Positions 41,319-53,478 of a stretch of DNA of 64,000 nt are shown here, piece by piece (the first letter of the stretch is position 1; each line of letters begins with the position of its first letter). The stretch lies in assembly GCA_964564695.1 (NCBI GenBank), contig CAZMCC010000001.1:2571-66570 (forward strand), written 5' to 3'. A program made the position numbers and the translations under genes. Below the pieces are notes generated by a model, which searched no databases, was not told where the DNA came from, and saw nothing but the letters and a program-made list of their open reading frames with translations. The DNA is from an uncultured Phycisphaeraceae bacterium (GTDB taxonomy: Bacteria; Planctomycetota; Phycisphaerae; Phycisphaerales; UBA1924).

Positions 41319-42755
41319 TCACCTCGACGCCCTCCACAGCCGCTTCGCCCACACGCAGCCCAGCGTCGTGGTCACGAGCACCAGCGCCCCGTTCGCCTGG
41401 TGCGCCGTCGTGATCGCCGCTTCCCACCACGGGACCTGCGCGACCGTATCGAGGTTCTCAGGCGAGGGCGGCAGCACGTCCTTCGCCTTCGACGACATCA
41501 CCGCCCCCAGCGCCGCCCACCCGAGCGCGAACTGCAGCATCACGATCACCAGCATCGCCACGCTCACGCGCGACACCGTGAGCTTCGCGGGCAGCAGCCC
41601 GCCCGCGAGCGATCGCGCCACCTTCCCACCGGCGAACCCCGCGCCGGTCACCATCATCATGATGACGAGGCTGAACGCCGCGTGCGACCACAGCGCGTGC
41701 GGCGTGTGGAAGTGGCGATACATCGCCCCGAGGACGAGCTGGATCCACAGCGCGTGCAGCGCTCCCGTCGCCATGGCCTTGTATTTCCGCAGGCTCGCGG
41801 GCGCCGCGTCGGTCGTCACAGACTGATAGGCCGGACTCACGTAGGCGCTGAGCGCCACCACGCCGGCGAAGAAGACCTGCGCCAGAACGCCGTGCAGCAG
41901 CGCGAAGAGCTGGCCTTGGCGCGTCCCGACTTCGAGTCCAAGGCGCACCCGAAGCCCGCCGAGCAACCCCTGGATGCACACGAGCACAAACAGCCCGATT
42001 GCCCACTTCCTCACCCACCCGCGCGTCTCGCCCCCCCGCAGCACCATCACCGCCGTGACGAGCGTCGTCAGCCCGCACAGCGTCCCGAAGAGCCGGTGCG
42101 TGTGCTCGATAAACATGGCCGGGTGGCTCATCAGCGCGATGGGGTAGAGGAACATGTTGGCGCCGTAGCTGTCGGGCCACCCGCGGATCGCGAGCCCCGA
42201 GTTCGTGCTCGTCACGGCCCCGCCCGTGACCACGAGCGGGATCACCGACGCCGCGCACACGAGCGTCATCCGAAACACCCAGTCTGCCGACAGCCCGCGC
42301 GCCCTGAACCGCGACCCGATCCCCGCCCCCAGCAGTCCAATGACCACGCCCGCCCCCAGGAACCCCAGCGCCGCCCCGCCCGCCCCCGGACTCAGCCCCT
42401 CGAGCCCCTGAGCCGGCAGGGCTCCGACCGTGGGGGGCTTGGTCAGCTGGGACCCCAGGATCAGCAGCCCCAGCACCGCCGACCCCCGCCCCGCCCCCCC
42501 CCCCATCGCGAGCGTCCGCCCCAGCGCCCCCCCACCCGCCGGAATCAGCCGCCCCGCCCCGATCGCCGCCAACGCCCAGCACCCCAGCACGAGCGGCCCC
42601 GCGACCGCGGGATCGAGGTTCAGGGCCGGGATATGCGTCAAAAACGCCGCCACCCACGTGGCCACGGCCATTCCAAACCCCAGCACAGTCACCATTGTGC
42701 CGGTCGAGGAGGATCGCGCAGAATAGATCGGGAATTGTTCGGGCGTCATGGTCAT
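41319..42755 (-). CDS. ctaA: COX15/CtaA-family heme A synthase with an N-terminal membrane extension
   Basis: Polytopic protein with paired His motifs typical of CtaA (MFIEHTHRLFGTLCGL; LLHGVLAQVFF; MYRHFHTPHALWSHAAF; TTAHQANGALVL). It is divergent from the ACIII/caa3 cluster. Confidence 0.6.
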   Translation of the reverse strand: MTMTPEQFPIYSARSSSTGTMVTVLGFGMAVATWVAAFLTHIPALNLDPAVAGPLVLGCWALAAIGAGRLIPAGGGALGRTLAMGGGAGRGSAVLGLLILGSQLTKPPTVGALPAQGLEGLSPGAGGAALGFLGAGVVIGLLGAGIGSRFRARGLSADWVFRMTLVCAASVIPLVVTGGAVTSTNSGLAIRGWPDSYGANMFLYPIALMSHPAMFIEHTHRLFGTLCGLTTLVTAVMVLRGGETRGWVRKWAIGLFVLVCIQGLLGGLRVRLGLEVGTRQGQLFALLHGVLAQVFFAGVVALSAYVSPAYQSVTTDAAPASLRKYKAMATGALHALWIQLVLGAMYRHFHTPHALWSHAAFSLVIMMMVTGAGFAGGKVARSLAGGLLPAKLTVSRVSVAMLVIVMLQFALGWAALGAVMSSKAKDVLPPSPENLDTVAQVPWWEAAITTAHQANGALVLVTTTLGCVWAKRLWRASR

Positions 42756-42943
42756 GGCGTCGCCCCTAAGTGCTGTGCCGAACAGGTGTTGAGATTGCGT
42801 CTCATGTTGAAAACGACCCGTCCAGCGGCTTGACAGGATACCTCTTGCCCCATGAGGATTCTTGTTGCGTAGAAGGTTGTGCGCTCAGACAGGAATTCCC
42901 GTCCGGAAACCCCGTTTTCGGGCCACCGACCGCGATCGAGGGC

Positions 42944-42957
42944 TTGACCCGTGTCAA
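42944..42957. promoter_or_regulatory. TTGAC-N4-GTCAA palindrome (FNR/CRP-box-like) overlapping the actA start codon
   Basis: ttgacccgtgtcaa seen directly. The consensus FNR box is TTGAT-N4-ATCAA. The position on top of the GTG start is atypical, so function is speculative. Confidence 0.2.
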
Positions 42958-43676
42958 CCGTCTTCCCGAAGTGGACCAACCAGCTCCCCACGATGCTCGC
43001 CGTCGGCGGCGTCGGTGCGCTGTGCGGGGTCATCGGCATCGTCTGGTACTTCTTCACGCCCAAGTACTGGGAGGTCGGCTACATGCCGGCGCAGCCCGGG
43101 GGCGGGTTCAGCCACCTTATTCATGCCGGCAAGCTGGGCCTTGATTGCCGCTATTGCCACAGCCACGTCGAGGAATCGCCCGAGGCGAATATCCCGACCG
43201 TGTCGACGTGCATCGGCTGCCACGGCGCGAACAAGCTGGCGCTCAACACCGACGCGAGCACGCCGCACTCGGTCAAGACCGAGTTCATCCGCACCGCGTG
43301 GAAGGCCGACGAGTCGATCCCGTGGCGCCGCGTCCACAAGCTCCCCGACTACGTCCGCAACTTCCCGCACAACGTGCACATCAACGCCGGCGTGAGCTGC
43401 TTCAGCTGCCACGGCATGATCGGCCGGCAGGAAGTCGTGCACCAGGCCAAGAGCCTGAGCATGAGCTGGTGCCTCGACTGCCACCGCAACCCCGAGCCCA
43501 ACCTCGTCCCGCGCGACAAGGTCACCGACATCTACTGGGTCGAGCAGCAGATGGCGACCGAGGGCAACCCGGCGACGCCGCAGCTCGGCTCGCCCGGCGG
43601 CAAGGCGCTGCTGCAGGCCCTGAGCGAGAAGCCGCTGCATCTCCTGCCTGAAAACTGCGGTGCTTGCCACTTCTGA
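42951..43676 (+). CDS. actA: Alternative complex III subunit ActA (pentaheme cytochrome c)
   Basis: N-terminal TM anchor and five CxxCH motifs (CRYCH, CIGCH, CFSCH, CLDCH, CGACH). GTG start gives VSTVFPKWTNQLP. Confidence 0.8.
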   Translation: MSTVFPKWTNQLPTMLAVGGVGALCGVIGIVWYFFTPKYWEVGYMPAQPGGGFSHLIHAGKLGLDCRYCHSHVEESPEANIPTVSTCIGCHGANKLALNTDASTPHSVKTEFIRTAWKADESIPWRRVHKLPDYVRNFPHNVHINAGVSCFSCHGMIGRQEVVHQAKSLSMSWCLDCHRNPEPNLVPRDKVTDIYWVEQQMATEGNPATPQLGSPGGKALLQALSEKPLHLLPENCGACHF

Positions 43677-43692
43677 GCAACGAGGAAATGCG

Positions 43693-44742
43693 ATGACGGA
43701 TCGGCGGACTGGAGCATTGGTGACGGGCGTTGCGACGGCGGTGGCCGCGGCGTCGGTCGCGTGCGCTCAGAGCGTGCCGAACTACGACTTCCAGTGGGCG
43801 ACGGTGGGGGATCTGAACAACGGCGGGTACGACGGGCCGACGCCGTTCGGACTCAAGATGCTGCTCGGGCGCGGGAGCGTGGACTACACATACCGCATCA
43901 GCAAGCTCGAGGTGACGACCTCGCAGTGGATGGAGTTCGTGAACACGTACTCGACCCGCGGCGACGAGTGGCGATTCTTCGGCGAACCAACGTTTTGGGG
44001 CGCGGTGGTGGACCCGTCCTATCAGGGGCCGGGTCGCCGGTACAGCTTGCGGACCGACGTCGCTAACGCGGGAATGCTGCCGGTGGTGCGCATGACGTGG
44101 CGCGACTCGGCGATGTTCTGCAACTGGCTCAACAACGATAAGGCGCCGACGCTCGAAGCGATCGCGAACGGCGCGTATGACATCAGCACGTTCGGCCAGA
44201 ACCCCGACGGAACTTTCACGGACCAAGCGGTGCACAACCCGGACGCGAAGTTCTGGATCCCCACGCTTGACGAGTGGATGAAGGCTGTGCGGTTCGATCC
44301 CAACCGCATGGGTGAAGGACAGGGCGGCTGGTGGCAGTACCCCAACATGAGCGACGAGCCGCCGATTCCCGGACGGCCGGAGGACGGAGGAACCACCAGT
44401 GCGGGGTACACCGATCTGGAGATCGCGTTTGGGGAATGGGACATTCCCCTTGGCGCGTATGCCGACTACATGTCGGCGTACGGGCTGTGGGACACATCCG
44501 GCGCGGGGAGCGAATGGATCGAGGACTACATCAACGGGCAACATCGGGAGCGGATTTACCTCGGCTCCTTCGCGAGCGGCGAATACGTCGTTGAGGATCA
44601 CTCGAGCGTGGCGATGAGTTCTCAGCCGGATTCGGCGGGGACAATGATCGGATTTCGCATTGCGAGTCAAGTTCCGGAGCCGGCTTCAGCGGCGACTTTT
44701 CTGTTTGGCTGTTCTCTGATCAGAAGAAAGAGGAGTTCATGA
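43693..44742 (+). CDS. FGE-sulfatase (SUMF1/DUF323)-like domain protein with a PEP-CTERM tail
   Basis: Signal peptide-like ALVTGVATAVAAASVACAQ. MTWRDSAMFCNWLN and the terminal IGFRIA are typical of formylglycine-generating-enzyme-like domains. C-terminus VPEPASAATFLFGCSLIRRKRSS (PEP-CTERM). Confidence 0.6.
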   Translation: MTDRRTGALVTGVATAVAAASVACAQSVPNYDFQWATVGDLNNGGYDGPTPFGLKMLLGRGSVDYTYRISKLEVTTSQWMEFVNTYSTRGDEWRFFGEPTFWGAVVDPSYQGPGRRYSLRTDVANAGMLPVVRMTWRDSAMFCNWLNNDKAPTLEAIANGAYDISTFGQNPDGTFTDQAVHNPDAKFWIPTLDEWMKAVRFDPNRMGEGQGGWWQYPNMSDEPPIPGRPEDGGTTSAGYTDLEIAFGEWDIPLGAYADYMSAYGLWDTSGAGSEWIEDYINGQHRERIYLGSFASGEYVVEDHSSVAMSSQPDSAGTMIGFRIASQVPEPASAATFLFGCSLIRRKRSS

Positions 44743-46586
44743 AGTTGCTGGTGTCTTGGCTATGCGCTCTGGTTGTGGTTGTGGGAGCACCCGCGGTTGC
44801 TCACGCGGGCGCCGAAGTGATTGTCACGGTCACGCGATCCGGCGGGGGGATTTGTTCAGGCACGTCCGTTTACTTCTTCAACGCCGGCACGCCCTTCACG
44901 TTGAATCTGGGCAGCTGTGATCACCAAATCAACATCGACACAATATCGAGTTCGATCAACATCGGTAAGATCACGCTTGACGGGGGGCCATCGTCCGGTG
45001 TAATCGACATCGTGCTGGCGCCGTGGCCCAACAGCCTCATCCAATCGGATACCGCACCGACGTATTTCATTGGCGCCAACTGGGCGGGCATTGACGATCA
45101 ACCACTCGATTTTTCGTCGGCTGTCCGTACGCGGCTGTATGGCGGCATTGGCGGCGCCGTAACGGGCGAGATCCATGTTGACGAGATATCTCGCTTTGAT
45201 TGCCTCGGAGCCCTCCAGGCTCCGATTACCTGCCAAACAGGGATCAATTTTGGAAATACGTTTGTTGTGCAGGCAAGCTCGTCGACGACCGGTGGCACGA
45301 TCTCGGTCTCGTCAAGCGGAATGTTGAGAGTTCGCGGGACTGGCACGCAGGGTTTGGCGGGTGCGATTTCTGCTCAGGGCGGCGGCATCAATCTGATCGC
45401 GTCCACTTCGGGCGGGTTGTTTGGGAACGTTAGCGCAACCGGGGATATTGCCAGCATCGACATGGGCGGTGCTATTGGCACTTCCACCACTCCCGTTTCC
45501 ATTACAACCACCGGACATGGATCCGACGTTGGCACTGTCAAGGGAACGGCGGTCTACGCCAACATCACAACTCCCCACCAATCCAATCCGCGCGGCGACA
45601 CCAAGCGGATCGAGGCCACTACTGGCGGCTTCAAGGGATCACTGACGACATATGTCATGCAGGGCACCGCTCTGGGTACCCCTGCGATTGACCTCGCCAC
45701 GAATCTTGATGCGAATGTTGACGTATTCGCGCTTGACCGTGGGCTCACGATCGACGGAAGCATACTTGCGGGCCGAACTGTTCGCGTGGGCCGAGCCCTC
45801 GCAGCCCAGGCGCCGGTTGTGATTGGCTCCGGGGGGCTGCAAGGACAGATCATTCTCAATGCCGAGAATATCGACGGCACGTGGTCGGGTTCGGTGACGG
45901 TCGGCAGCACCACGTTGTCTCCAACACCCTACTACACGCAGTTGTCTTCCCAACTCGGCGGCGGTGCCGTTGGCCTCGCTCCGTATAATTGTCACGTCCA
46001 GGACTGCGACCCGCCGCACCTTTCCGTCCTCACCGAAGAAGAAGTCGGCGAGGGCCTTTCGAGCGTGGTCGTGCGTCACTACGGCCCCGTGAACTTCGCA
46101 TCGGGATTCCCCTTCGTCGTCATGGAGACCGAGCTCCCGAACTATGTCGATGTTCCGAACAGTATCTGTTGGGAGTGCTGCGGGGTCGGGACGTGCTCGT
46201 ACAGCCCGCCGGTTCCGGGCTGCCTCGGCACGCCGGTGAACATCAGTTCAAGCCTCTCGGCGGTTCAGAGCGAGACCAACCCGCGCGACATCATCGTCTC
46301 GGGCGTGGGCGGCTTCAAGTTCAGCCAGTGGCACACGTACTGCTTCAAGCCGCTGCGCACGGCAACCAGCAACAAGCTGTACTGCGAAGGAGTCACGGGT
46401 TCGCCCGTCGTGACCGATTACATCTATCGCTTCGCCATCATCGGGAGCATGTTCGACCTCAACTACAGCGGCGATGTCGAGTACGGCGACGTGACTGAGT
46501 GGTTCGAGGAACCCGTCGACTTCAACGGCGACGAAGCAGCGGACTCCGCGGACCTCGCAGAGTTGATCGAAGCGGTCGGCGAGTGA
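44739..46586 (+). CDS. Large secreted protein with a degenerate dockerin/EF-hand-like C-terminus, lower GC
   Basis: ATGA overlap with the upstream gene. Signal peptide MKLLVSWLCALVVVVGAPAVAHA. C-terminus DLNYSGDVEYGDVTEWFEEPVDFNGDEAADSADLAELIEAV. Two hand-counted 60-nt lines give 55-57% GC, against 70% in actB. Confidence 0.6.
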   Translation: MKLLVSWLCALVVVVGAPAVAHAGAEVIVTVTRSGGGICSGTSVYFFNAGTPFTLNLGSCDHQINIDTISSSINIGKITLDGGPSSGVIDIVLAPWPNSLIQSDTAPTYFIGANWAGIDDQPLDFSSAVRTRLYGGIGGAVTGEIHVDEISRFDCLGALQAPITCQTGINFGNTFVVQASSSTTGGTISVSSSGMLRVRGTGTQGLAGAISAQGGGINLIASTSGGLFGNVSATGDIASIDMGGAIGTSTTPVSITTTGHGSDVGTVKGTAVYANITTPHQSNPRGDTKRIEATTGGFKGSLTTYVMQGTALGTPAIDLATNLDANVDVFALDRGLTIDGSILAGRTVRVGRALAAQAPVVIGSGGLQGQIILNAENIDGTWSGSVTVGSTTLSPTPYYTQLSSQLGGGAVGLAPYNCHVQDCDPPHLSVLTEEEVGEGLSSVVVRHYGPVNFASGFPFVVMETELPNYVDVPNSICWECCGVGTCSYSPPVPGCLGTPVNISSSLSAVQSETNPRDIIVSGVGGFKFSQWHTYCFKPLRTATSNKLYCEGVTGSPVVTDYIYRFAIIGSMFDLNYSGDVEYGDVTEWFEEPVDFNGDEAADSADLAELIEAVGE

Positions 46587-46750
46587 GTTTGACGATGGTG
46601 AAAGGCAACGGTAAAGGAAGACGGACCCTTATGAGCCTTGATCAATGCCATTCGACGGTCGGTGAGAAGCCCATCCCCGCGGCACGCAGCGTGCCGATGG
46701 AAGCCGTGGGCATCTCTCCGCTTTCCAGCGCCGCCGGTCAGGCCAAGGGC

Positions 46751-49700
46751 ATGAAGTTCTGGCGCAGCCTCGACGAGTACGCCGACGCGCCCGAGTTCCG
46801 CGAGTGGCTCGAGAAGGAATTCCCCGCGGGCGCCAGCCGTCTCATCGAGACCAGCCGTCGCGACTTCGTCAAGCTCATGGGCGCCAGCGTCGCCCTCGCG
46901 GGCGCGGCCATGATGCCGGGCTGCCGCCGGCCTGACCACAAGATCATGCCGTACTCGAAGAACGTCCCCGAGGAGACCATCCCCGGCAAGGCCGTGTACT
47001 TCGCGACGAGCATGCCCGTCCTGGGCGGCGGTTTCGGCGCCGGCGCTGAAGGCCTGCTCATCGAGACGCACGAAGGTCGCCCGACCAAGGTCGAGGGCAA
47101 CCCGCTCCACCCGAACAACCGCGGCAAGAGCAGCATGTGGGCCCAAGCCAGCGTGCTCGATCTCTACGACCCGGACCGTCTCAAGGACCCCGTGCTCGTC
47201 GACACCGGCGACATGCCCCGCTCGTGGGACGACTTCGGCGCGTGGAGCAAGCAGCACTTCGCGAAGTTCGACGCCAACCAGGGCGCCGGCCTCGTCTTCC
47301 TCGCCGAGAAGGTCTCGAGCCCCTCGCGTGACGCGGCCCGCGACGCCGTGATCGCCAAGTGGCCCAAGGCCGCGTGGGCGGTGTACGACCCGACCGAGGA
47401 CGCGGGCCTGCTCGCCGGCAGCCCGCCGATGTGGGGCGACCGTCCGTGCAAGCAACTGCTCGACCTCTCCAAGGCCAAGACGATCGTCGCGTTCGATCGC
47501 GACCTGCTCTTCAGCGAGCCCGCCGCCCTCACGCACGCCCGCGACTTCGCGGCCACGCGCAAGGCGATGACGACCAAGGACGAGATGAGCCGCCTGTACG
47601 CCGTGGAGAGCCGCTTCACGCTCACCGGCGGCAAGGCCGATCATCGCGTGCGTCTGGCCCCGAGCCAGATTCCGTGGGCGATCGCGATGCTCGCGAAGGC
47701 GGTGATGGCGAAGCTCGGCGGCGGCGGTGGGGGGGGTGGGGGGTTGGCGACCGCGATCTCCTCGATGTCCGCCACGCTCCCCGCGGCGTTCGCCGAGTCC
47801 GGCCTCAACCAGCAGTGGATCGACGCCTGCGCCGACGACCTCGTCGCGAACAAGGGCCACAGCGTGGTCGTCGCCGGCCCGGGCCAGCCCGGTGCGGCCC
47901 ACGCGATGTGCCACCTGCTGAACGTCGCGCTGGGCAACGTCGGCACGACCGTGAGCTATCTCGAGATGAGCAGCGAGGAGGCCTCGAGCTCGGCGGGCGA
48001 GCTCGCGAAGGTCGCGGCGCTGCTCGACACCGGCAAGGTCGACACGATCGTCTGCCTCGGCGTCAACCCCGTGTACGACGCGCCCGGCGCGCTCGACTTC
48101 GGGGCCAAGTTCGCCAAGGCCGGCATGCGGATCACCCTCGACCACGGCCCCAGCGAGACCGTCGCCGCCAGCAACTGGCGCCTTCCCAAGGCCCACTTCC
48201 TCGAGGCCTGGGGCGACACCCGCTCGGTCGACGGCACGATCGCCCCGATCCAGCCCATGATCGCTCCGCTGTACGGCGCCAAGAGCGACCTCGAAGTGCT
48301 CGCGATGATCCGCGGCGCCGAGCACACCGACGGCTACGAGCTCGTCCGGGCCGCGTGGCGCGATGCCGAGGGCGGGCGCGCCGGCGGCCACGAGGGCGGC
48401 GACTTCGAGAAGCGCTGGCGCCGCGTGCTGCACGACGGCGTGGCGTCGGGCACCGTGGGCCAGGCCGCCGCCAAGCCGATCGACCGTGCGAAGCTCGAGG
48501 CGTGGGCGACGGGCCTCGTCGCGGGCATGAAGCCCGCGGGCGTGCCCGCCCGGGGCTCGCTCGACGTGGTCTTCGCCGCCAGCAACGTCGGCTCGGGCAA
48601 GCAGGCCAACAACGGCTGGCTGCACGAGCTTCCCGACGCCACGAGCCACCTCTCGTGGGACAACGCCGCGTACGTGAGCCCCAAGACCGCCGAGGCCCTG
48701 GGCCTCATGCCGAACTCGGGCACGAGCGAAGTGCGCGAGGCCCGCATCGCCGACCTCACCGTCGGCGGCCGGACCCTGCGGATCATCGTGTGGCCGACGC
48801 CGGGCGTCGCCGAGAACACCGTGGTGCTCCCGCTGGGCTTCGGCCGGACCGTGGTCGGGCGCGTGGGCGAGGGCTGCGGCTTCAATACCTATGCGGTGCG
48901 TCCGGCCGGCGGCGAGTTCAGCGCGAGCGGCGCCACGCTCAAGCCCGCGAGCGAGGGCGACCGCTGGTACCGCGTCGCGTGCACGCAGACGCACTACTCG
49001 ATGGAAGGCCGCGCGCTCCTCCGCGAGGTCGACGTCGGCGCGTACCGCGCGTACGGCGACGACCCCTTCGTCGGGATGAGCGAACAGGACAAGAAGAAGC
49101 TCGCCACCGACAGCTATGGGCGCGACCGGCGCATGACCTTCGCCGAGCGCCTGGGTGAGCTGAGCCACACGCCGGCGAACGAGTCGATCTACGACAACCC
49201 GTACAACCTCGGCAAGCGCGACCCCGACACCACGAAGCGGACCGACAAGGGCGGCCCACCGGCCTACAGCGTCGGCCCGCAGTGGGGCATGTCGATCGAC
49301 CTCGCCACGTGCACCGGCTGCAACGTGTGCACCATCGCCTGCCAGGCCGAGAACAACATCCCGATCGTCGGCAAGCGCGAGGTCCAGAAGGGGCGCGAGC
49401 TCCAGTGGATCCGCGTCGACCGCTACTTCATGTCCGAAGCGACCAACCCGCGCGGCATGGACGACCCCACGGGCATGAGCTTCCAGCCCGTCGCCTGCGT
49501 CCATTGCGAGAACGCCCCCTGCGAGACCGTCTGCCCGGTGAACGCCACCGTGCACGGCCCCGAGGGCATCAACTACATGGTCTACAACCGGTGCATCGGC
49601 ACCCGGTACTGCGCCAACAACTGCCCGTACAAGGTCCGCCGGTTCAACTTCTTCGACTACGGCGTCGCCAAGTACAAGGGCCAGTACCTGGGCAAGGAAG

Positions 49701-50334
49701 AGGCCGACAAGATCCCCGGCGGCGGCCCCAGCAACAACCCCAACTTCGTCCCGCCCCGCCTGCGCGAGAAGCTCGACGAGATCACCAAGCTGCAGATGAA
49801 CCCCGACGTGACCGTCCGCTCCCGCGGCGTCATGGAGAAGTGCACCTACTGCCTGCAGCGCACCAACGAGGCCCGCATCGAGGCCAAGCTCAAGAAGCTC
49901 CCGGGCATCCTCGACGGCATGGTGCAGACCGCCTGCCAGCAGGCCTGCCCCAGCGACGCCATCAGCTTCGGCGACATGCTCGACAGCGCGACCGACTACG
50001 ACGCCCGCAAGGGCAGCCGCCTGCACGCCGAGCGCAACCACTCCCGCAGCTACCTGCTGCTGGGCTACCTCAACACGCGCCCCCGCACGACCTACATGGT
50101 CGGGCTCCGCAACCCCAACCCCACGATCCGCCCAAGCGTCGACAACCCCTTCCATCACGGGGACCACGACGACAACGGGCATGAGGGGCATGACCCCCAC
50201 GAGGCGCCCGCCCCCGCGGGTGAGAAGCCCGCGGAGCGGCACGGCCTGCTCGCCGAGCCCGCGAGCTCCTCGCGCCGCCTCGCCCTTGACTCCGGCCTGA
50301 AGTTCACGCTCCGCGTTCTCGGAGGCACCACCGC

Positions 50335-50338
<4 letters not shown>
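46751..50338 (+). CDS. actB: Alternative complex III subunit ActB (molybdopterin-oxidoreductase-like domain fused to a 4Fe-4S ferredoxin domain)
   Basis: [25 protein letters not shown], then the Tat signal [19 protein letters not shown]. Fe-S Cys clusters [38 protein letters not shown] and CTYCLQR. Alternative ATG starts exist at 46631 and 46697. Confidence 0.85.
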
Positions 50339-51999
<1,661 letters not shown>

Positions 52000-52052: not shown

Positions 52053-52622
52053 ATGGCCAAGCGAACACGCACCATTTACAAGACCCCCGAAGGGCAGGTC
52101 ATCCACGGGATGATGGCGGAGTACGCCACCCCCGCCGACCTCTACCACGCCGCGGAGAAGGTCCGCGACGCCGGGTACTCCCGCTGGGACGTCTACAGCC
52201 CGTTCACCGTGCACGGCATGGACGACGCGATGGGCAACCCCGCCACGAAGCTCCCGCTCGTGGTCGCCGCCATCGGCCTCACCGGCGCCGGCTTCGGCTA
52301 CCTGCTGCAGTACTGGGTCGGGCACATCGCGTACCGCACCGTCGTGCAGGGCAAGCCCACCGACGCGTGGGAGCCGTTCGTCCCGGTGACCTTCGAGCTG
52401 GGCGTGCTGTTCACCGCGTTCGCCGCCCTGCTGGGCATGATCGCGTTCAACAAGCTCCCGATGTGGTACCACCCGCTCATGAAGAAGGAGCGGTTCCTGA
52501 AGGTGTCCGACGACCGCTTCGTGATCCACGTCGAGGCCGCCGACCCCAAGTTTGACCCCGCTGCCACGCGCACCCTGCTGGAGAAGTCCGGCGGGACCCG
52601 CGTCGATCTGGTGGAGGAATAA
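52053..52622 (+). CDS. actD: Alternative complex III subunit ActD (DUF3341)
   Basis: MAEYATPADLYHAAEKVRDAGYSRWDVYSPFTVHGMDDAMG plus two TM helices, the typical ActD layout. Confidence 0.8.
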   Translation: MAKRTRTIYKTPEGQVIHGMMAEYATPADLYHAAEKVRDAGYSRWDVYSPFTVHGMDDAMGNPATKLPLVVAAIGLTGAGFGYLLQYWVGHIAYRTVVQGKPTDAWEPFVPVTFELGVLFTAFAALLGMIAFNKLPMWYHPLMKKERFLKVSDDRFVIHVEAADPKFDPAATRTLLEKSGGTRVDLVEE

Positions 52623-52626
52623 GCCC

Positions 52627-53478
52627 GTGAACCCGAGTCCCGCTCCTAAGCCCGCCGCCCACCGCTCAGCACTCGCGTTCGCGCTGGTGGCCGGCGCGTG
52701 CGCCGCGCTGCTGCCCGCGTGCCACGGCGAGCGCTCCAACGACCCGCCGCGACAGTTCCTCCCCGACATGGACGACTCGCCCAAGTTCAAGCCCCAGATG
52801 CAGACGGAGTTCTTCTCCGACGGTCGGGCCATGCGCGGGCAGGTCCCCGGTACCGTCGCCTTCGGCTTCGACACCGACGCCGCCGACGATGAGCGCGGCC
52901 ACTTCCTCCGCGCCGACGCCGTCTACTACAACGGCTACGAGAAGACCGACGATCATGGCGAGCCGATCTTCGCCGACACCATCCCCGCCGGCATCCAGGT
53001 CACCAAGGACTTCATCCTCCGCGGCCAGCAGCGCTTCAACATCTACTGCTCCGCCTGCCACGGCTACCTCGGCGACGGCAAGGGCATGGTCGGCAAGCAG
53101 TGGTCCGCCCCCGTCCCCAGCTACCACGACGCCAAGTACCTCAACAAGGCGCAGAAGGAAGGCAAGGACGGGTTCATCTTCTACACGATCATGCACGGCG
53201 TCGCGCCCGGCACCCCGGGCGAGCCCACCAAGATGCCGTCGTACGCCGACAAGGTCAACGAGCACGACGCCTGGGCGATCGTCGCGTACGTCCGCACGCT
53301 CCAGAGCGTCTGGGTGACCGACCTCTCCAAGCTGCCCGCCGACAAGCGCCAGCAGATGGACCCCTCGCGTCCGCCGGCGCCCCCGCCGGAGAAGCCGGCC
53401 GCCCCCGCGCCCGGTGCACCCGCGACGCCCGGCGCCCCCCCCAGCCCCGCCCCCGCCGCCACCGGAGGTCACCAGTGA
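52627..53478 (+). CDS. actE: Alternative complex III subunit ActE (monoheme cytochrome c lipoprotein)
   Basis: GTG at 52627. Lipobox LLPAC. A single CSACH heme site, then FIFYTIMHG...MPSYA (Met ligand region). Pro/Ala-rich tail. Confidence 0.75.
   Translation: MNPSPAPKPAAHRSALAFALVAGACAALLPACHGERSNDPPRQFLPDMDDSPKFKPQMQTEFFSDGRAMRGQVPGTVAFGFDTDAADDERGHFLRADAVYYNGYEKTDDHGEPIFADTIPAGIQVTKDFILRGQQRFNIYCSACHGYLGDGKGMVGKQWSAPVPSYHDAKYLNKAQKEGKDGFIFYTIMHGVAPGTPGEPTKMPSYADKVNEHDAWAIVAYVRTLQSVWVTDLSKLPADKRQQMDPSRPPAPPPEKPAAPAPGAPATPGAPPSPAPAATGGHQ

Follow-up and report, generated by a model that had tools for sequence, protein, structure and literature searches.

We examined a window of 64,000 nucleotides (nt; the whole stretch of DNA analysed here, G000:C1:2571-66570) from a Phycisphaerales metagenome-assembled genome (MAG; G000, 3.71 Mb spread over 150 contigs and 84.6% complete, GC content 0.688), in which two genes for secreted proteins lie between actA and actB of an operon for the respiratory alternative complex III (ACIII). 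The genes from actA to actE are on the + strand. The actA gene, which encodes the multihaem cytochrome c subunit of ACIII and matches cytochrome c3/c7 and QrcA models, occupies 42951-43676 and ends in a TGA stop codon at 43674-43676. It is followed by a spacer of 16 nt (43677-43692, GCAACGAGGAAATGCG), read directly and aligned with that of a close relative, L053, and containing the Shine-Dalgarno (SD)-like sequence GAGGAA. An ATG at 43693 then opens the first inserted gene (43693-44742; Pfam FGE-sulfatase, 64.5 bits), which encodes a secreted protein of 349 amino acids (aa) with the fold of the formylglycine-generating enzyme (FGE). The stop codon of this gene and the start codon of the next overlap in the sequence ATGA (44739-44742), again by direct reading, and a GAGGAG Shine-Dalgarno sequence stands 5-10 nt upstream of the second start, within the codons for the basic tail of the FGE-like protein. 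The second gene (44739-46586), hereafter the partner gene ('P3'), was delineated by its open reading frame (ORF), a family alignment and an AlphaFold2 (AF2) model, and specifies a secreted, beta-rich protein of 615 aa. An initial annotation of this DNA had described two co-oriented, translationally coupled genes between the end of actA at 43676 and actB, and both the reading frames and the overlap bear this out.

The same annotation placed the start of actB at 46751, which is wrong: the gene begins with an ATG at 46631, 120 nt further upstream. From this codon the ActB N terminus reads MSLDQCHSTVGEKP and matches the motif M-x(1-4)-DQC[PH]ST, which is conserved in most relatives of the same family, and the DNA encoding it is near-identical in four close relatives whether or not they carry the insertion. 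The extension so added (M..DQC[PH]STxG, 46631-46750) lies about 40 residues before a motif, RRDF, of the twin-arginine translocation (Tat) type. Because actB starts at 46631, the spacer after the insert measures 44 nt (46587-46630) and not 164; it carries the SD-like sequence AAGGAAG and can be aligned with the L053 spacer. A promoter for actB had been considered as a possibility within 46587-46750, most of which we now find to be coding sequence for the conserved ActB N terminus. Folding of the 44-nt spacer gave nothing stable (-4.7 kcal/mol, z +1.0), a terminator scan found no + strand terminator in 46587-46630, and a scan of 42500-47200 returned no sigma-70-like promoter, a model to which Planctomycetes-type promoters are invisible.

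Downstream of the insert the remainder of the act operon is intact. With its revised start, actB spans 46631-50338 and encodes the Tat-variant extension followed by molybdopterin-like and Fe-S domains, as judged from domain models and the N-terminal motif; it is followed by actC (50335-51999, Pfam NrfD), actD (52053-52622, Pfam ActD) and the cytochrome c ORF actE (52552-53478, Pfam Cytochrom_C), with SCO1 beyond them and with ctaA and a nitroreductase gene upstream of actA. The presence of ActA, a Tat-exported ActB, an NrfD-type ActC, ActD and a cytochrome c ActE, in the order seen in relatives, identifies the operon as that of ACIII. These neighbours (ctaA, the nitroreductase gene, actB to actE and SCO1) also agree with the earlier statement that no transposase or integrase flanks the insertion.

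To place the two genes among relatives, all of them MAGs, we searched 40 for ActA, found orthologs in 35, and fetched the actA locus in 29 belonging to the same family or order. In all 29, actB directly follows actA with no FGE-like or partner gene between them, and the same adjacency holds in four of four further close relatives, the contigs L054, L055, L056 and P0153, whose ActA identities are 87% (twice), 83% and 72%. Insertion-free spacers, where measured, were 60, 120 and 138 nt long. The premise that ACIII operons are normally contiguous, and that the insert is restricted in lineage, is thus upheld among the relatives compared. The exception is L053, a 2.6-kb contig of a close relative that was assembled independently from an unrelated sequencing run. 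Its gene order is that of the window: the 3' end of actA (86% aa identity), a spacer of 62 nt where the window has 16, an FGE-like gene (70%), the ATGA overlap, a 261-aa form of the partner corresponding to window residues 364-613 (68%), 43 nt, and actB (93%). Both junctions of the insert can be aligned between the two, and a metagenome scan with the conserved 5' end of actB recovered only two contigs, both already known.

In MAGs, copies of the family are often found at the ends of contigs, and one might suspect that assembly or binning had joined a repeated cassette into a chimeric contig. The same operon, however, continues on both flanks, and because the independent L053 contig has the same order and alignable junctions we exclude an artefact, to which we assign a very small probability. 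The insertion is confined to a sub-lineage, and about equally distant lineages (86-90% DNA identity in the flanks) are polymorphic for it. As a separate observation, the insertion-free spacers of L055 (L055:7727-7846) and L056 (L056:7793-7930) contain long inverted repeats (GTGAACGGTGA... / ...TCACTGTTCAC), which in L055 fold to -50.6 kcal/mol (z -4.75); this hairpin is lacking in L054 and in the filled alleles.

The FGE-like protein has a signal peptide at its N terminus, and its AF2 model (mean predicted local distance difference test score, pLDDT, 77) matched CarF, ToxD, FGE, EgtB, pFGE, PvdO and PorK with a Foldseek probability of 1.00; a profile search of the PDB likewise matched pFGE/SUMF2, CarF and PorK. 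We looked for the catalytic cysteine pair of FGE, taken as human Cys336 and Cys341 near the domain C terminus as named in PDB mutant entries. No invariant or near-invariant cysteine appeared in an alignment of 31 family sequences, and none lies in the segment matched to pFGE (profile positions 246-322), an alignment made to the non-catalytic pFGE and not to catalytic FGE. The mature window protein has a single cysteine, in FCNWL. The fold is present but the catalytic pair was not seen, and we therefore do not class the protein as a formylglycine-generating enzyme; it seems to lack catalytic activity and probably serves as a binding module.

At its C terminus (VPEPASAATFLFGCSLIRRKRSS) the FGE-like protein bears VPEP, a hydrophobic helix and RRKRSS, and equivalent tails, mostly of the form [VI]PxP, occur in 52 of the 80 family members surveyed and in the majority of local copies. 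An exosortase/EpsH gene is present on the same contig (G000:C1:74996-75772; PF09721, 132.8 bits). Of the earlier proposal that this is an FGE/SUMF1-like protein with a PEP-CTERM anchor, the FGE-sulfatase fold and the tail motifs stand, while no curated PEP-CTERM hidden Markov model (HMM) scored above its threshold; NCBIfam (TIGR02595) in particular gave no PEP-CTERM match in this protein.

The partner protein consists of a signal peptide, a variable N-terminal region resembling a beta-sandwich or solenoid, a conserved core that reads GLxGQIIINA..W.G.VTVGSTTLSP..Y..SS.LGGGAVGL.PF.LH..DC.P...RHYGPV in the family alignment, and a C-terminal pair of calcium-loop/helix repeats. Its AF2 model is all-beta (pLDDT 82; predicted template modelling score, pTM, 0.79). 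No match was obtained in Pfam, NCBIfam or PADLOC, nor to any PDB sequence, and Foldseek comparison of the model with PDB and BFVD returned nothing significant. A family profile nevertheless collected 1,583 representative clusters (50% identity), of which 1,247 have E < 1e-10. The two DxNxDGxxxxxD-like loops at the C terminus, each followed by a helix, read DLNYSGDVEYGD and DFNGDEAADSAD. The 615-aa protein had been described as secreted, with a degenerate dockerin-like tail, and the signal peptide and both loops are indeed there, the dockerin assignment itself remaining below the Pfam threshold. In L053 the short form (L053:1346-2131, 261 aa) has its own signal peptide fused straight to the conserved core and is without the beta-solenoid-like N-terminal half of about 350 aa found in the window partner. 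The window partner also contains a cysteine-rich stretch (CWECCGVGTCSYSPPVPGCLG, window 46150-46240, residues ~470-500), modelled as a loop with low confidence; L053 has a shorter version of it, and most family members have none.

We then compared the window with L053 by estimating dN and dS (nonsynonymous and synonymous divergence) with the NG86 method. In the act genes flanking the insert, dS was 0.32-0.42 and dN/dS 0.13-0.16. The first 60 codons of the FGE-like gene gave similar synonymous divergence (dS 0.28, dN/dS 0.32), and this 5' segment (43693-43882, ~90% identical to L053) has its recent history in common with the flanking act genes. The remainder of the FGE-like gene reached a dS of 1.54 (dN/dS 0.16) and the C-terminal half of the partner one of 1.66 (dN/dS 0.13), so that synonymous divergence in the gene interiors is 4-5 times that of the surroundings, with an apparent recombination breakpoint near 43880 in a sliding identity plot. 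Overall dN/dS for the two inserted genes was 0.13-0.20. Both genes are under purifying selection and are presumably functional.

A third sequence sharpens this pattern, namely contig P0034, which carries the closest FGE homolog outside L053 (68% identity). Across the N-terminal 40 columns of the FGE protein alignment, the window and L053 are 86% identical to each other and 53% identical to P0034; across columns 261-320, L053 and P0034 share 85-90% identity and only 47-62% with the window. We read the interior divergence and this mosaic as recombination or gene conversion among cassette copies.

At many unrelated loci in relatives, an FGE-like gene again precedes a partner of 480-790 aa. At least 588 FGE-family loci were found in species genomes of the GTDB, and the best 80, taken by score alone, formed the sample for a locus survey in which ORFs were called by a crude heuristic based on GC at third codon positions (GC3). 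The titles of 79 of these 80 loci (the best 80 of at least 588) name Phycisphaerae or other Planctomycetota, the last reading only 'uncultured bacterium', and the close homologs of the inserted pair are all from Phycisphaerales or Phycisphaeraceae. A partner was recognised directly 3' of the FGE-like gene at 34 loci, nine of them with the same 4-nt overlap. Judged from these sequences, the family is native to Phycisphaerales, large and paralogous: G015, a relative from a different genus of the same family, has 15 FGE matches, and the window genome has two besides the window copy. We found no description of the FGE/partner family, or of insertions into ACIII operons, in the literature searched.

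The sites that the family occupies are diverse, and on metagenomic contigs the pair adjoins unrelated housekeeping genes. The sample that yielded P0034 also yielded an ACIII operon without the insertion (87% ActA identity). On P0034 the FGE homolog sits between Aminotran_5 and CDO_I genes that are followed by a tetratricopeptide repeat (TPR) gene; at the syntenic site of the window genome (PhoU, Aminotran_5, CDO_I, TPR; Aminotran_5 to TPR at G000:C64:15676-18777) there is no cassette. With the P0034 site filled and its counterpart empty, closely related cassettes evidently occupy different sites in related genomes. In G015, co-oriented copies interrupt three ribosomal-protein operons, as rplJ, FGE-like gene, partner, rplL-rpoB (L065, G015:C15:53700-59900), as rplW, FGE-like gene, rplB (L076, G015:C117:1-6657) and as rpsM, FGE-like gene, rpsK-rpoA (L118, G015:C19:21500-29000); in all 29 of the other relatives checked, rplJ sits next to rplL. 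Following the FGE-like gene at the rplW-rplB site (L076:3950-4020), another frame encodes ...EEFVAAIRQMNQEQMEAEVRRLGALLNGGQ*, which matches the C-terminal motif of the G015 partners and looks like a remnant left after deletion of most of a partner gene. Further copies stand just upstream of rplK in G020, downstream of nusG in G003, and upstream of rpsA both in G004 and on metagenomic contigs L047-L050.

A general rule by which the family would target highly expressed operons was rejected by the unbiased survey. Only 3 of the 80 loci had any of 18 panel genes (ribosomal, RNA polymerase, NusG and ACIII) within 4 kb, against a random background of 2%, and both neighbours were co-oriented at 18 of 53 loci, a fraction that by informal judgement is close to chance. 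Repeated insertion into core operons is striking, yet it is not the rule of the family.

The same distribution bears on whether the two proteins are tied functionally to ACIII, which the initial annotation had offered as one option; maturation, anchoring or regulation, for example, would then be what keeps them in the operon. Co-orientation, the tight spacers within the operon and retention under purifying selection in two lineages would fit such a role. Among more than 130 family loci inspected, however, only the window copy and L053 lie at ACIII; the hundreds of family members elsewhere include copies beside unrelated metabolic and housekeeping genes and in ribosomal operons, 33 relatives have ACIII operons without the pair, and each of the proteins bears signals for export and surface sorting, while neither has a redox motif. 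We consider a functional tie to ACIII very improbable.

The lower GC content attributed to both inserted genes was borne out by a sliding-window GC profile and by the GC and GC3 of the genes. In 600-nt windows GC falls to 0.57 at 44600-45500, compared with 0.68-0.74 in actB. By gene, GC and GC3 are 0.663 and 0.93 in actA, 0.628 and 0.80 in the FGE-like gene, 0.598 and 0.72 in the 615-aa gene, and 0.703 and 0.96 in actB, with a GC3 of 0.97 in actC; among 2,511 crudely called ORFs of the genome, the FGE-like gene ranks at the 3.3rd and the 615-aa gene at the 1.4th percentile of GC. Paralogs elsewhere in the window genome (contigs C105 and C80) have a GC of 0.57-0.62 and a GC3 of 0.63-0.76 beside neighbours at 0.90-0.94. 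In the genomes of other species, the FGE-like gene is below its flanks in GC at 40 of 45 loci (median -0.03), as is the 1.45 kb 3' of it at 37 of 45. Because paralogs and loci in other genomes have the same deficit, low GC is a property of the gene family and no sign of recent foreign origin.

These data also speak to recent horizontal acquisition from a lower-GC donor outside the lineage, the 'foreign cargo' of the initial annotation. The values that inspired it are real (GC 0.60-0.63 against 0.69 for the genome, GC3 0.72-0.80 against 0.93-0.96), but local paralogs and members in other genomes show the same deficit relative to their own flanks, the close homologs all belong to the Phycisphaerales, to which the family is native, and the insertion, or at least its 5' end, was in place before the lineages of the window and L053 parted. 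We therefore abandon low GC as an argument for foreign cargo, and a foreign donor is improbable.

No transposase, integrase, terminal repeat, target duplication or attC-like site was found at the locus. Separately, one copy in G015 is convergent with an ORF (L062:1-945, G015:C93) that resembles XerD, to judge by its C-terminal sequence alone; at the other cassette copies inspected we saw no recombinase. Two further identities were considered. A variable protein of a diversity-generating retroelement was rejected because neither a reverse transcriptase nor a template repeat was found, the genome (84.6% complete) giving no RVT_1 match and no near-identical repeat of the insert elsewhere. An anti-phage defence system was rejected because PADLOC matched neither protein.

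Taken together, we favour the interpretation that the two genes are a cassette of a Phycisphaerales gene family that entered the short spacer between actA and actB in a sub-lineage of the genus, and that this landing site is unrelated to respiration; we hold this to be likely. The cassette would have reached the spacer by the chance of relocation and recombination and would have been tolerated there. Transcription would start at the act promoter, in the divergent region between ctaA and actA, and read through the insert into actBCDEF. As the insert is nearly pure coding sequence, with spacers of 16 and 44 nt and with neither a terminator-like hairpin nor a promoter-like site, co-transcription is the most economical arrangement, and the insert is most likely co-transcribed with the act operon. 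Each inserted gene could then be translated from its own SD-like site. Both products would be exported, the FGE-fold protein being sorted by exosortase to the surface or matrix and the partner perhaps docked through its calcium-binding tail, if the motifs are a guide. Since pairing and coupling are conserved, the gene arrangement suggests that the two proteins act together at the cell surface. Homologous exchange through the conserved flanks would explain the spread between lineages and the mosaicism, though not the first insertion.

Several observations weigh against parts of this interpretation. At the DNA level, a search for flanking direct or inverted repeats, or a target-site duplication, at the insert gave matches at chance level only, and the junctions at five operon sites have no motif in common. 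The cassette may have an internal promoter, or a promoter of the Planctomycetes type beyond the reach of the sigma-70 scan. Weaker codon constraint may partly explain the high interior dS. As for sorting and docking, the FGE-like protein scored 12.9 bits (E 0.13) against PF07589, where the cut-off is 20.7, and the partner tail taken alone scored 17 bits against Dockerin_1, where Pfam requires 22.9. Finally, in a tree of 660 nt of flanking sequence from five roughly equidistant lineages, the filled window and L053 are not sisters, and a non-monophyletic filled state, on what is a weak tree, would require that the pair was lost, gained a second time or passed laterally as an allele.

The interleaving of filled and empty states on that small tree is what would be expected if the genus had inherited the pair at this site from its ancestor and had lost it repeatedly, and the divergence of the cassette interior, far greater than that of its flanks, would also fit. 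Against an ancestral pair stand the empty sites, seen in 29 of 29 relatives at family level and in 4 of 5 further close lineages; their spacers are short and normal, in some cases contain a structured hairpin, and bear no deletion scars. The tree in favour of an ancestral pair is weak. Ancestral presence with repeated loss is accordingly unlikely, and insertion into a sub-lineage remains the reading we prefer.

A broader proposal is that such pairs are a new kind of mobile cassette without a recombinase of its own, consisting of little more than ORFs, moving between spacers that include those of the ACIII, rplJL, S10 and alpha operons, spread by homologous exchange of flanks and reshuffled by gene conversion. 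We put this forward tentatively, as a possibility that is on balance doubtful. If true, it would give these bacteria a repertoire of surface proteins that can be shuffled and that are expressed at a level dictated by the host operon. Independently of it, conserved operons prove splittable, in that a core respiratory operon and, in G015, three ribosomal-protein operons carry genes for exported proteins without the usual marks of mobile DNA. The large, undescribed gene-pair family is also a candidate variable cell-surface system in Phycisphaerales, a group that is abundant in the environment and poorly cultured. For annotation the case advises caution: low GC here marks a gene family, and adjacency to ACIII genes should not be taken as function.

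Among known systems, the non-catalytic FGE-fold proteins (pFGE/SUMF2, 1Y4J; PorK/GldK; CarF, 5AOH; PvdO) share the fold of the window protein and, like it, show no catalytic cysteine pair; the window protein differs in being only 13-18% identical to the solved FGE-fold structures and in having a sorting tail and a dedicated partner gene. The account of Haft et al. 2006 (PMC1569441) describes PEP-CTERM proteins as having a Pro-x-Pro motif, a hydrophobic helix and a basic cluster at the C terminus, and their typical genes as single-gene units that follow long intergenic regions. The family resembles PEP-CTERM systems in its signal peptide, its tail of VPEP, helix and basic residues, its many diverse copies per genome and the presence of an EpsH homolog, and departs from them in its sub-threshold HMM score, its mostly [VI]PxP motif and its organization as a coupled two-gene unit within an operon, with spacers of 16 and 44 nt. 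The two loop-helix repeats at the C terminus of the partner recall a Type I dockerin, from which the partner is set apart by its sub-threshold Pfam score, by the presence of the tail in only a subset of the family and by there being no identified cohesin partner, cohesins having been left unsearched.

Promoterless or selfish inserts between conserved genes are familiar from integron cassettes and from the free-standing homing-endonuclease genes of T-even phages. Unlike these, the pair encodes exported products, shows no preference for a site or operon in an unbiased sample, and was found with no integrase, attC site, nuclease, transposase or terminal repeats. What it has in common with them is an insert that is nearly ORF-only, co-oriented conserved neighbours, a patchy distribution and an expression that probably depends on the host operon.

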